A stretch of DNA of 64,000 nucleotides from Bdellovibrionota bacterium (GCA_044345405.1 JBIJBE010000003.1:8427-72426), one strand, 5' to 3'. Positions 8,856-15,377 are shown, counted from the stretch's first letter. A program made the numbers and translations. The notes: generated by a model from the sequence alone, not told the origin.

Positions 8856-9615
8856 GTACGAGGAGCAGGTCGAGCCCCCTTTCCATCGAGGGGCTCGTGG
8901 AGAGAGCATGGGAGCCGTTCTCAATCATCATTTCGAGCGTGACGCGCTCATTGAGGAGTACCATGAATTCGTCGAAGGATTGGTGTGTCGCCTCATGAGA
9001 GCGATGGGTCTTCCCCAACGACATCGTGATGACTTCGTTTCCGCCGGGCTCCTTGGGTTAGTCGAGGCCGCCGGTCGTTTCGATCCGGGGCGGGGAAGTG
9101 AGTTTCGCTCCTTCGTGTTTTTACGGATACGAGGCGCCGTTATCGATCATATTCGGGCCTCGTGTGAGCTATCGGGTCACGCGTATCAGGTTCTTAAGGC
9201 CTTGGAGAGCGCGCAGGAGATTCGAGCGCAGGCGTTGGAGGCGCGACGATCGGGAGGTCATCCGCCCAGAACGCAAGCGATGGAGGGGGTAGATGTCCTC
9301 AGTAAGAGCGCGGTCGCGTTGGCGCTCGTCACTCAGTCGGTCGACGCTCCTTTTTTTGGTGGAACCGCTCCCTCGGATCCGGAGCGAGAACTTCATAAGA
9401 AACAAACCTCAGAAAAAATTCGCGCCGCGATAGCAACTTTGCCCGAAAAGGAGCGAATCATCATCGAGCAGTACTACTTCCACGACCTCACGCTGAGCGA
9501 GGTCGCTCAGCAGTACGCGGGACTTTCAAAATCCTGGGTGTCGAGGTTGCATGACAGAGCGTTGGGGATGTTACGGGAAAAGTTGGTTGAGGGAGGGATT
9601 GGGGTTAAAGCCTAA
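8856..9615 (+). CDS. fliA: FliA/WhiG-type sigma-28 RNA polymerase sigma factor. The ORF is open from 8686, but the ATG at 8856 with an upstream GGGAG gives the family-typical ~252 aa.
   Basis: Region 2 (DDFVSAGLLGLVEAAGRFDPGRGSEFRSFVFLRIRGAVIDHIR) closely resembles FliA. The region 4.2 HTH is LSEVAQQYAGLSKSWVSRLHDRALGMLREKL. Confidence 0.8.
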
Positions 9616-9631
9616 CTCTTGTTCGGCCGCC

Positions 9632-10390
9632 ATGATCGTTTTGTTGGTGGTCCTTCTTGCTGGATGCCAAGAGCAGATAGTTCACGATCTCTCGGAGCGA
9701 GAGGCGAATACCGTCATCAGTCAACTTAGTGCGGCTCACCTGGATGCCCGAAAGGTTCAACAGCCGGATGGTCGGTGGGCTATTTCGGTGGATCAGGATG
9801 AGATGATTGAAGCGCTCTCCTACATCGAGACCCGTAGGGTGTTACCACCTCGCGAGCCGAGGTCTCCGTCGAGTAAGGGTGGAATGATTCCGAGCCGCGA
9901 GGAGCAGTGGTTTCGGTACGAACGCTCGGTGGCGGCCTCAATTGAGGAGAGCTTGTCCGCGCTTCCCGGTGTTCTCGACGCGCGTGTTCACGTGAACCTG
10001 CCCGACGATGATCCTTTGTTTGGCGATTCCGCCCGAAAGGGGGGATCGGGATCGGTGCTCTTAGTGGTTGATCGTCGATTCGTGACCGGGCGTGATGAGG
10101 TCGCGGCTCTCGTCAGTGGAGCCGCTGGACTCTCTCGTGATGTTGTTCGGGTACTCACGAGTGAAGCAGTTGAGCCGCATCCGCCCGAAGGGGATGGAGC
10201 TCCTGTCGCGATAGCATCGGCTGCTCCACAACCGTTGGAGCCTCAGGTGCCGTGGTTCTTCCTGTCTTGGATGGTTGGCGCGAGCGCTCTCGTCGTCGGT
10301 GTCGTCGTGTATGGTGTTCGGTCTCTCACGAGGCGTCCTAAACGGCGGGTGACCTTTGCACTTCCTAAGGAGTTAGATTTTGAGGGATAG
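9632..10390 (+). CDS. sctJ: Type III secretion inner-membrane ring lipoprotein, SctJ (YscJ/EscJ/PrgK) family
   Basis: Lipobox LLAGC. The YscJ-family secretin/ring-building motif is present and there is a single C-terminal TM helix (WFFLSWMVGASALVVGVVVYG). At ~250 aa this matches SctJ, not the ~550-aa FliF. Confidence 0.75.
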   Translation: MIVLLVVLLAGCQEQIVHDLSEREANTVISQLSAAHLDARKVQQPDGRWAISVDQDEMIEALSYIETRRVLPPREPRSPSSKGGMIPSREEQWFRYERSVAASIEESLSALPGVLDARVHVNLPDDDPLFGDSARKGGSGSVLLVVDRRFVTGRDEVAALVSGAAGLSRDVVRVLTSEAVEPHPPEGDGAPVAIASAAPQPLEPQVPWFFLSWMVGASALVVGVVVYGVRSLTRRPKRRVTFALPKELDFEG

Positions 10391-10394
10391 CGCT

Positions 10395-10592
10395 ATGTCG
10401 GAACACGAACTCTCACGGATCGCGATGACCTGTTTTGTGGAAGGTATCGACCCATCGAGGTTGGCGCTTTCCCCTGGGCATCTCGCGCGGGTTGAGGCGC
10501 TGCTCGTGGAGTTTGGGGCTGAATCGGATACCGATGGGTATTACCGATGTCTTGCAACGTTGTCATCGGAATCGCCGGAGGAGGTTTCATGA
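10395..10592 (+). CDS. Small acidic protein (65 aa), translationally coupled between sctJ and sctQ. It may be a T3SS accessory protein or chaperone.
   Basis: A GAGGGATA RBS precedes the ATG at 10395. The stop TGA overlaps the sctQ ATG (ATGA). No recognisable domain. Confidence 0.35.
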   Translation: MSEHELSRIAMTCFVEGIDPSRLALSPGHLARVEALLVEFGAESDTDGYYRCLATLSSESPEEVS

Positions 10593-13753: not shown

Positions 13754-14300
13754 GCCCGCAACTCTTGGGCGCATACTTTCGATACTCGTAGGTACGGCGC
13801 AGCTCCTTGGATGCGTTGCCTCCTCGGCGGTTCCGGATGGGTATTTTCGAAAGGCTGAAGCCTTGGTTGATGTGGGAACGAGGTTTCTACGGGAGCGGCG
13901 TTTGGTCGACGCGCGGAAAGCGTTCGAACTCGCCTCTGAGTTGGCTCCGGTGGCTTCGGCGGTTGATGGGCTCGGGTGTGTGGCGCTCCTTGAGGGGCGG
14001 TATGACTCGGCGGAGGGCTACTTTCGAGCGGCGTATGAGATGGATCGTTCCTATGACGAGGCGTTAGTGAACCTGGGGCTTCTGAGGGAACTTCAGGGGC
14101 GGTCGAGTGAAGCTAGAGCTATCTATTTGAAGTATTTAGAGAAAAGCCCATCTTCGGGGAACGCTCGCAACAACCTGGCGGCCCTTGAGTACGATGGGGG
14201 GAGGGGTACAATGGAAACGGTCGCGTCGTTGGAGAAAGCGATAGTTCTGTCAGATCAAGTTGTTATCCGCGATAATCTGGTGGTTCTGAGAAGTAAGTAG
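13734..14300 (+). CDS. TPR-repeat lipoprotein. Its start overlaps the sctV stop (the ORF is open from 13584, but the ATG at 13734 has a GGAGGAGGG RBS).
   Basis: MKKKSP...LLGC lipobox, then TPR-like helical repeats (AEALVDVG..., YFRAAYEMD..., ALVNLGLL..., ARNNLAAL). Confidence 0.5.
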   Translation: MKKKSPRPATLGRILSILVGTAQLLGCVASSAVPDGYFRKAEALVDVGTRFLRERRLVDARKAFELASELAPVASAVDGLGCVALLEGRYDSAEGYFRAAYEMDRSYDEALVNLGLLRELQGRSSEARAIYLKYLEKSPSSGNARNNLAALEYDGGRGTMETVASLEKAIVLSDQVVIRDNLVVLRSK

Positions 14301-14312
14301 AGTGGAGTTGGT

Positions 14313-14621
14313 ATGACAAACAAGGCTACGAAGAGCAAAGTGACACCGGCGGGCTCCAAGCAAAACACCGGTCGCCGGATCTCTACCCCTATAACCTCAG
14401 CTGATTCCGCTGTTGAGAGTGTGGCGTTGTCCGATCTTCTCTCCACCCACACGGGGGCTTCCGAGGATCAGGTTCTCGACACTCTCCTCACGCGGATCAC
14501 CGATAAGTTGGGTGACCAGGGGGTTGAAAAGGGTCAAATGCATGAATTCCTTAGCCTCATTCTTGATACCGACCCGGCTCTCAAAGAGGAGATATTGCGC
14601 GGAATTCGCGTGAGTAAGTGA
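14313..14621 (+). CDS. Small protein (102 aa) with a basic disordered N-terminus and an acidic helical C-terminus. It may be a T3SS-associated regulator, chaperone or substrate.
   Basis: The ORF follows the TPR lipoprotein within the locus. It has no recognisable domain and the composition recalls FlgM-like exported regulators, but no motif is conclusive. Confidence 0.3.
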   Translation: MTNKATKSKVTPAGSKQNTGRRISTPITSADSAVESVALSDLLSTHTGASEDQVLDTLLTRITDKLGDQGVEKGQMHEFLSLILDTDPALKEEILRGIRVSK

Positions 14622-14654
14622 TTCTTATTCCCCCTCCACGCAATCTAATCTTGC

Positions 14655-15377
14655 ATGGAGACCAAGCCCCCCGAATCTTCGGCTGAACGCCGCATCCTGA
14701 TCGCCGATGACGACGCTGATTCACGCATCGTCGTTGCGAGCGTGATCTCCATTTTGGGGCACTGCCCGGTGGTTGTGCACGGAGGGGGGGAAGCCCTTGA
14801 GGAGTGTGAGCGGCAGCTCCCCGATCTCGCGATTGTCGACTACACTATGCCCGCGGTGAACGGGATCGAGATGTGTCATCGGTTGAAGACGATCCCTGGT
14901 GGCGAGTTGGTTCCGATCCTTATGCTCACCGCGCGTGATAGCATGCAAGATAAGATCTCCGCTCTCGAAGAGGGGATCGATGACTACCTCACGAAGCCAT
15001 TTAACTACCAAGAGCTGCGAGCGCGGGTGAAGGCGTTGCTGCGAGTCCGGGATCTTAACGTCAAGCTCGTGGCTAAGACTGAAGAGCTAAAAAAGACGCA
15101 GGAGCGCCTGGTCGCGACTGAGCGACAGGTAGCGGTCGGACAGCTCGCTGGAACGGCGGCGCATCAGTTGGGGCAGCCGCTATCGGCTATCATGCTCAAC
15201 TGCTTCCTTATTGAGAAACTTCCCAAAGAGGACTCCAAGTTCTTAGGCGCGGTCGCCGCTATTAAGAACGATGTGCGTCGAATGGTTGAGATGATCGATA
15301 GCCTTCGTAACATTAAAGCTTCGGCCCGTGAGGAGTACTTCGATGGCACTGAGATCTTAAAATTGAAAGACGACTAG
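14655..15377 (+). CDS. Response-regulator receiver domain fused to a HisKA phosphoacceptor/dimerisation domain, with no HATPase domain
   Basis: REC motifs (ILIADDD, phospho-Asp in LAIVDYTMP, the KP motif) are followed by an H-box (LAGTAAHQLGQPLSAI). The protein ends after ~70 more aa with no ATP-binding N/G boxes. Confidence 0.6.
   Translation: METKPPESSAERRILIADDDADSRIVVASVISILGHCPVVVHGGGEALEECERQLPDLAIVDYTMPAVNGIEMCHRLKTIPGGELVPILMLTARDSMQDKISALEEGIDDYLTKPFNYQELRARVKALLRVRDLNVKLVAKTEELKKTQERLVATERQVAVGQLAGTAAHQLGQPLSAIMLNCFLIEKLPKEDSKFLGAVAAIKNDVRRMVEMIDSLRNIKASAREEYFDGTEILKLKDD

Follow-up and report, generated by a model that had tools for sequence, protein, structure and literature searches.

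The reference core set of a type III secretion system (T3SS) of the non-flagellar kind comprises SctC, J, N, Q, R, S, T, U and V (Abby and Rocha 2012). The systems of the Myxococcales, including the needle-less T3SS* of Myxococcus xanthus, are reduced, vertically inherited and non-canonical (PMC3459982, PMC12428579), and their loci carry SctR/S/T/U and the ATPase SctN (PMC3459982). In the Rhc system of the Rhizobiales, SctV is encoded apart from the main sct operon in the arrangement y4yQ-rhcV-y4yS, with small open reading frames (ORFs) before it and a tetratricopeptide repeat (TPR) lipoprotein of ~180 amino acids (aa), Y4yS, 3' of it (PMC3574062), and in Chlamydiales T3SS genes are scattered over several loci (PMC3459982). 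Here we describe a gene module from a Bdellovibrionota bacterium: nine intact, co-oriented ORFs at positions 8856-15377 (+) of a 64-kb stretch of DNA, the window, which is part of a 268-kb JGI metagenome contig. We consider it probable that this locus is a vertically inherited, self-regulated module and part of a divergent non-flagellar type III apparatus that forms a family of its own.

We found work on the Myxococcus T3SS* in the searchable literature and no description of a T3SS in Bdellovibrionota or of this combination of genes. The module resembles the Myxococcales systems in being reduced, vertically inherited and non-canonical. Both occur in the former Deltaproteobacteria, which include predators, and both have SctJ, SctV and a rod-type protein (here a candidate) and no secretin in the locus. 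Unlike the Myxococcales loci, however, the module has no SctRSTU or SctN at the locus and carries a dedicated sigma factor, a TPR lipoprotein and an SctV lacking the SD2 subdomain. With RSTU and N absent from the window and its SctV family in a separate clade (99% bootstrap), it does not match the Myxococcales type. The module and the rhcV-y4yS arrangement match in architecture and position, with an hhalign similarity of the lipoproteins at the level of generic TPR proteins. Rhc differs in that the symbiotic plasmid or island bears the complete core at another place, that its Y4yQ is SctD-like and that a FliA-like sigma factor is lacking; the score of RhcV, which possesses SD2, to the window SctV is only 312 bits.

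Chlamydia also possesses a short FHIPEP protein and a sigma-28 gene (NCBIfam PRK05910, PRK05911), but the gene order differs from that of the module. An earlier note on this DNA had likened the neighbouring sigma and sctV genes to chlamydial fliA/flhA. The resemblance is not specific, because the scores of the family with PRK05910 (chlamydial FlhA; cutoff 670), 209-252 bits, do not exceed those of E. coli FlhA (253) and YscV (245), and a chlamydial affinity was rejected on this ground. The flagellar FliA-FlgM checkpoint likewise combines a FliA-family sigma factor encoded together with the export gate, sigma-28 spacing and a CGAT core at -10. In the module, the -35 element is GCAACTTT rather than TAAAGTTT, the region 4.2 helix differs, and no FlgM homologue was detected, the 102-aa protein showing no similarity to E. 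coli FlgM in hhalign.

The locus and its SctV protein

ORFs were assigned to families by Pfam and NCBIfam profile searches, plus PDB sequence searches, and the assignments agree with the nine genes that the earlier note had named. The module and its promoter-like motifs consist of the following features.

8763-8787, +: P1, promoter-like motif GCAACTTT-N13-CGAT, exact match, 5' of the sigma gene
8856 or 8908 to 9615, +: FliA-like (group 3) sigma factor, Sigma70_r2 and r4
9632-10390, +: SctJ-type inner-membrane ring lipoprotein, 252 aa, PF01514 (YscJ_FliF)
10395-10592, +: conserved ORF of 65 aa, no Pfam family
10547-11413, +: SctQ/FliN-like protein, 288 aa, with a C-terminal SpoA domain (FliMN_C, residues 226-288)
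11453-11477, +: P2, promoter-like motif GCAACCTC-N13-CGAT, 5' of the 107-aa gene
11510-11833, +: candidate axial protein of 107 aa (rod/needle superfamily), matched by neither Pfam nor PDB sequences
11840-13753, +: SctV/FHIPEP export-gate protein, 637 aa, without SD2, PF00771 at 504.6 bits
13734-14300, +: TPR lipoprotein, 188 aa, lipobox LLGC, TPR families
13758-13783, +: P3, promoter-like motif GCAACTCT-N14-CGAT, directly 3' of the sctV stop
14313-14621, +: ORF of 102 aa, no Pfam family
14655-15377, +: REC-HisKA protein without an ATPase domain, Response_reg and HisKA

The FHIPEP protein belongs to the SctV export-gate family, as seen from its PF00771 score and from a model of its C-terminal part that matches YscV, MxiA and FlhA. 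The profiles for the two branches of this family score it almost alike, with 453 bits for TIGR01399 (hrcV; cutoff 692) and 439 bits for FlhA, both far under cutoff, and YscV, FlhA and SsaV were about equal in a PDB sequence search. SctV trees were calculated by neighbour-joining (NJ) from Kimura distances in two rounds, one with 51 taxa and 604 columns and one with 118 taxa including the new family. In the 51-taxon tree, neither the flagellar clade nor the clade of the sampled injectisome and Myxococcota proteins included the window clade (94% and 74% bootstrap, respectively). In the 118-taxon tree, the family (subgroups S1 and S2) was monophyletic (99%) and the flagellar clade stood apart from all else (99%); the remaining non-flagellar sequences were monophyletic in only 30% of replicates. 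The window SctV was nested neither in the Rhc clade nor in the sampled Myxococcota SctV.

The ring protein, too, is of a non-flagellar type. The 252-aa lipoprotein scores 93 bits with TIGR02544 (SctJ; cutoff 162) vs 15 bits with fliF, carries the lipobox LLAGC and a C-terminal transmembrane segment, and has PrgK and MxiJ as its best PDB sequence matches, with EscJ also found; together, these features make it a member of the SctJ ring lipoproteins. A flagellar T3SS would look different: here the FHIPEP protein lies outside the FlhA clade (94% and 99%), the ring protein is of SctJ type, and flhB, fliPQR, fliG and fliI are not adjacent. The view of the earlier note that the system is non-flagellar, with an SctJ lipoprotein instead of FliF, thus holds, and the SctV was not found inside the FlhA clade, the outcome that would have spoken against that view.

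The third core protein is a SpoA/SctQ family member, with 27.4 bits for PF01052 (gathering threshold 23.8) and just 16 bits for TIGR02551. Its SpoA domain is nearer to FliN (28-39 bits) than to YscQ (17 bits), and no family was detectable in the N-terminal 220 aa. The protein likely starts at 10589, and an internal 119-aa product from 11054 is possible. It is conserved over its full length (277 aa aligned at 62% identity in the related locus L005), and in subgroup S2 its gene is divided in two, one part encoding 242 aa and the other a SpoA protein of 96 aa.

The cytoplasmic domain of the window SctV is far more diverged than its membrane domain. The latter, including the RFTLDALPGKQMAIDA loop, is conserved to the same degree as between flagellar and injectisome proteins, with a mean distance of 0.95-1.07, vs 0.93 between these two groups. 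In the alignment, a gap of ~50 aa falls at the position of SD2 (FlhA ~440-495), and the linker is shorter, too. An AlphaFold model of residues 330-637 reached a pLDDT of 92.7 and a pTM of 0.88. Foldseek matched this model equally well to YscV, MxiA, FlhA, CdsV and SsaV (E~1e-14 to 1e-17, TM scores mostly 0.65-0.79), the best matches being the C-terminal domains of YscV, MxiA and FlhA (E~1e-16 to 1e-17, TM 0.66-0.79). According to the model, the cytoplasmic domain keeps the SctV/FlhA fold minus SD2. In FlhA and SctV, SD2 helps to form the site at which chaperone-substrate complexes dock, so the absence of SD2 would amount to a functional difference.

Proteins of the window type are numerous. 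A HMMER scan of 1.84 billion representative proteins returned a continuum of FHIPEP proteins of 590-680 aa that score 320-580 bits to the window SctV, and at 50% identity the window-type family falls into ~115 clusters. Among themselves, canonical FlhA and SctV proteins reach 340-590 bits, and their scores to the window SctV are ~300 bits; the Myxococcota-type SctV are the top canonical scorers (319-340 bits). A metagenome scan with the family alignment was discarded, as the back-translated patterns turned out to be universal FHIPEP motifs and only one of 80 loci (L113) was in the family.

Conservation of the module and its smaller proteins

The closest genomes are metagenome-assembled genomes (MAGs) labelled Bdellovibrionota, Deltaproteobacteria or Pseudomonadota, many of them from freshwater lakes, with SctV proteins 58-82% identical to that of the window. 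Carriers of the module include the MAGs JBDLRS01, JBIKWQ01, JBIJBZ01, GCA_016786595.1 and GCA_041740355.1 and the IMG bin with 3300044732 Ga0453697_0000003. The order and orientation of all nine genes are kept in 12 of 12 close relatives (these MAGs and one contig at 52% SctV identity), indicating that the ORFs are not due to chance. The housekeeping flanks are syntenic as well, with bioB and hemB on one side and an exonuclease, HpcH, AhpC and two FlgO-like lipoproteins on the other. This common order of module and flanks across relatives indicates vertical inheritance of a chromosomal locus and not a decaying remnant.

The first eight genes recur at SctV identities of 39%, 36% and 34% and in the sister subgroup S2 (L091, L093, L092, L095, L097 and L113). 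The recurrent block consists of the sigma factor, SctJ, a small or N-terminal SctQ-like ORF, the SpoA protein, one or two ORFs of ~95 aa, SctV, the TPR lipoprotein and an ORF of ~100 aa; the distant member L093 is apparently without the SpoA gene. The earlier note had counted the REC-HisKA gene as part of the locus. This is true of the close Bdellovibrionota clade, where the protein is 61-95% identical over full-length matches, but the gene is missing from the block in the distant L091, L093 and L095.

The earlier note had also proposed the small ORFs as T3SS components. One of them belongs to the 107-aa family, which is lineage-restricted, without a Pfam match and without a PDB sequence match even at E<=10. 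Its C-terminus is invariant (SN..RS.HE.EMAPIRNMR.G), and it is predicted to be a single long helix, although the AlphaFold 2 model has low confidence (pLDDT 63). When the family was compared by hhalign with 31 groups of small T3SS and flagellar proteins, nothing significant was found. Subgroup S2 provides a link. There, two small genes precede sctV (L095 9294-9908, L097 272-819), one of which is needle-like. The 107-aa family aligns with the S2 orthologues of 93/94 aa (hhalign 99.6%) and with the needle-like S2 paralogue (hhalign 89%, E=2.3e-6). This paralogue (L095, 90 aa) in turn matches PF09392 T3SS_needle_F over the whole model (E=6.4e-5; 23.5 bits, under the gathering threshold of 29.4) and aligns end to end with YscF/MxiH (P=0.0045). 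Through this chain of homology, the 107-aa protein can be read as a rod-like candidate member of the needle/rod superfamily.

For the other two small families, the proposal found no such support: neither the 65-aa nor the 102-aa family gave a significant hhalign match to Ysc, Mxi or flagellar proteins including FlgM, or a consistent Pfam family. A weak Y4YQ_C match (E=0.2) of one S2 member of a small-ORF family was dismissed. Both families are nevertheless conserved. The 65-aa family was found in 11 loci by jackhmmer. The 102-aa family is lineage-restricted and conserved as far as L091, L092 and L093. Its proteins start with a basic N-terminus and end in a conserved helical domain (FL..LL.TDP), and the part in between is variable.

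The lipoboxes of the TPR protein are kept across the clade. A hidden Markov model (HMM) of its family retrieves a ~180-aa TPR lipoprotein directly 3' of rhcV in ~20 rhizobial loci, which is Y4yS (PMC3574062). A periplasmic role, for example as pilotin or outer-membrane connector, would fit the TPR lipoprotein of the module.

The sigma factor, the promoter-like motifs and the rest of the window

The first gene of the module encodes a FliA-like sigma factor, as the earlier note had recognized. FliA_WhiG is its best NCBIfam model (106 bits, under the cutoff of 189.6), and the HMM of its family retrieves genuine FliA proteins at 65-115 bits. In the alignment, region 2 is FliA-like and the recognition helix of region 4.2 is altered.

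The sigma-28 promoter consensus is TAAAGTTT-N11-GCCGATAA. The canonical patterns TAAA-N14-16-GCCGATAA and TAAA(GTTT)-N11/15-GCCGATAA had no match in the window. By aligning the intergenic regions of the relatives, we found a different motif, GCAACTTT-N13/14-CGAT, at three fixed places (P1-P3). With at most one mismatch, its density is 2.33/kb in the three designated regions vs 0.015/kb elsewhere in the same loci, a 150-fold enrichment. In the window, the degenerate motif has four matches, with 0.25 expected, and three of the four are P1, P2 and P3. As a separate observation, the fourth match, GCAACYYY-N13/14-CGAT at 62387-62411 (+), lies 10 nt before an ORF (62421-63395) for which no called gene is on record and in which a Y1 transposase domain of the IS200-like type is weakly recognizable.

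P1 is present in most close relatives that cover the region (exact or near-exact in six by scan, looser by eye in others) and in L093. P2 is recognizable in nearly all close relatives; it is degenerate in L013 and L014, the scan match in L007 lies 238 nt upstream, and in L093 the motif lies 56 nt before the 107-aa orthologue. P3 is present in 12 of 12 clade loci, and its constant trait is that it precedes the 102-aa gene (by 132 nt in L093). Its position relative to the TPR gene varies: in several relatives it lies before this gene, and in the window and three others it lies inside the codons for the TPR signal peptide. In the window, the TPR start and signal peptide (13734-13812) overlap both the sctV stop and P3. 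A transcript from P3 could not encode the signal peptide here, and the lipoprotein of this sublineage must therefore be read from the sctV transcript. The motif persists in the distant L093 and L097, and in L091 it takes the form GAAACTTT-N13-CGAA.

Judged from the sequence, the spacing and the CGAT core of the motif correspond to a sigma-28-like promoter, and the different region 4.2 helix would fit the changed -35 element (GCAACTTT vs TAAAGTTT). The sigma-28 promoters that the earlier note suggested looking for would thus precede the module genes in a variant form, not with the canonical consensus. Another conserved element, (G)CAATCTAA, is found at 14633-14650 of the window, 8-10 nt before the start codon of the REC-HisKA gene, and in distant clade members, too. 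In the window it is a near-palindrome, GCAATCTAATCTTGC, and it may be a translational or RNA-binding signal.

The local GC content of the module is 0.57-0.59, and the entire window has ~0.556. When every large ORF was scanned with Pfam, the rest of the window proved to consist of housekeeping genes; tRNA and Rfam scans of the window gave no match, and scans for sigma-70 promoters and terminators were uninformative. Some neighbours deserve mention. Two divergent lipoproteins at 18324-19280 (-) and 19038-19937 (+), one with a FlgO domain (PF17680, 111 bits), are syntenic with the module in all close relatives and are followed by three ORFs without a Pfam match (20369-22681). At 25405-26769 (+), LpxC (UDP-3-O-acyl-GlcNAc deacetylase) is encoded in one ORF together with a receiver domain of the response-regulator type at the N-terminus; for the enzyme of the committed step in lipid A synthesis, such a fusion is unusual. 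Next to hemB, the ORF at 6334-7395 (-) encodes a secreted protein that contains a short collagen-like Gly-X-Y repeat.

Readings of the locus and its significance

Several results weigh against the reading of the locus as part of a non-flagellar type III apparatus. The most serious are the missing core genes. We searched all six-frame ORFs of the window by phmmer, taking all proteins of the Ysc, Mxi-Spa and E. coli flagellar sets as queries, and scanned the large ORFs with Pfam. No SctN/FliI, SctR/S/T/U, SctC, SctD or SctL was found in the window, which agrees with the earlier note on sctN, sctC and sctRSTU, nor was any of this set (SctN, SctR/S/T/U, SctC, SctD, SctL) found within 10 kb of the module in ~20 related loci. 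The 10 kb beyond the left edge of the window hold housekeeping genes and no core sct genes, so the ATPase and gate genes are absent from all three regions; the secretin has no YscC/MxiD homologue in the window or in the flanks of the relatives. A working secretion machine is therefore not demonstrated. Furthermore, all core-gene matches score under the NCBIfam equivalog cutoffs, and the trees are NJ only, without references from Chlamydiales, Hrp1/2, SPI-2 and Desulfovibrionales, with a long family stem that invites long-branch artefacts. A direct hhalign comparison of the 107-aa family with YscF and MxiH was not significant (P=0.065), and the putative promoter role of P1-P3 has conservation as its only basis. 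Finally, the TPR family reaches 97.6% with Y4yS in hhalign, but generic TPR controls reach 96.5-97.2%. The link to Y4yS hence rests on size, lipidation and position, and we downgraded the homology; of the earlier proposal that the TPR lipoprotein is a T3SS component, its conservation and these three likenesses stand.

As a side observation, SctV genes of the Myxococcota type in L016, L021, L022, L024, L039 and further loci from Polyangia/Myxococcota are isolated: phmmer at E<=1e-4 recognized no additional T3SS gene within 10 kb of them.

If the locus is part of a non-flagellar apparatus, as we favour, it may work as follows. The sigma factor would recognize the P1-P3 motifs and activate its own operon (sigma-sctJ-65aa-sctQ) in an autoregulatory loop. 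Its further targets would be the 107aa-sctV operon and another unit, of which the 102-aa gene is always a member. SctJ would form the inner-membrane ring around an SctV nonamer, SctQ the cytoplasmic platform and the 107-aa protein a short axial rod, with the TPR lipoprotein acting in the periplasm as pilotin or outer-membrane connector. The loss of SD2 suggests a small or unusual set of substrates. SctR/S/T/U and the ATPase would most likely be encoded at another locus or, less likely, be replaced by a shared flagellar gate. We speculate that the 102-aa protein might serve as an anti-sigma factor or as a regulator that is secreted.

The module might instead be everything there is, a stand-alone reduced device without SctR/S/T/U and ATPase that serves another function or a minimal export. 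The same eight-gene block, and nothing more, was seen in every context examined across very deep divergence, the chaperone docking site is reduced by the loss of SD2, and no chaperone, gatekeeper or translocon gene was present in the module searches. However, we know of no working type III system in which the SctRST channel, the base for assembly of the rod, is missing, and the needle-like gene of S2 implies a real export of axial subunits. Split T3SS loci are, moreover, known in Chlamydiales and rhizobia (PMC3459982, PMC3574062). We regard a stand-alone device as unlikely. Our estimate is lower still for a module that plugs into the flagellar gate (FliPQR/FlhB/FliHIJ) or is co-regulated with late flagellar genes through the sigma-28-like factor. 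Its -35 element departs from the canonical sigma-28 consensus, of which the window holds no site, and SctJ and the needle/rod-like proteins are injectisome features in a window where phmmer with the E. coli set found no flagellar gene. This has to be set against a FliA-family sigma factor, a SpoA domain nearer to FliN than to YscQ, the syntenic FlgO-domain lipoprotein 4 kb downstream, although this domain is not specific evidence of a flagellum, and the fact that Bdellovibrionota are generally flagellated (PMC11656739).

It is very improbable that we misread a flagellar locus with highly diverged flhA, fliF, fliN, fliE and fliA. JGI does annotate the FHIPEP protein as FlhA, the TIGR scores are close (439 for FlhA vs 453 for hrcV), and a fliA-like gene is adjacent. 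Yet the flagellar clade excludes the family with 94-99% bootstrap, the ring protein is an SctJ-type lipoprotein (93 vs 15 bits for FliF), the S2 paralogue matches T3SS_needle_F, and true flagellar loci, unlike this one, have flhB, fliPQR, fliG and fliI nearby. The incomplete core gene set could also mark the decaying remnant of a lost T3SS, but all ORFs are intact, order and sequence are kept from 82% down to 34% SctV identity and in ~115 clusters, the promoter motifs are conserved, and the model of the SctV C-terminus is confident. This pattern of conservation effectively refutes a remnant. A bolder version of the reduced device would make the family a third major branch: a minimal apparatus under a sigma-28-like factor, made up of an SctJ ring, an SctV without SD2, a SpoA platform, a short rod and a periplasmic TPR lipoprotein, without its own SctRSTU and ATPase, working alone or on the flagellar gate, intermediate between flagellum and injectisome and with the 102-aa protein as an exported anti-sigma checkpoint. 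We hold this to be doubtful.

In current schemes of type III evolution, a small number of injectisome families stand beside the flagellum, and the reduced systems of the Myxococcales take the basal position (PMC3459982). To these, the present analysis adds a family of ~115 clusters in uncultured relatives of predatory bacteria. It is marked by a fixed module of eight genes, an SctV without SD2 and a FliA-like sigma factor of its own, together with a recognizable promoter-like motif. In complete genomes, the motif would offer a direct route to the rest of the regulon. Should the core genes be absent there, the module would represent a reduced type III device of a new kind. Were those genes to lie elsewhere in these genomes, the family would be a new injectisome-type family with a flagellum-style sigma regulator and would bear on the separation of injectisome and flagellum.

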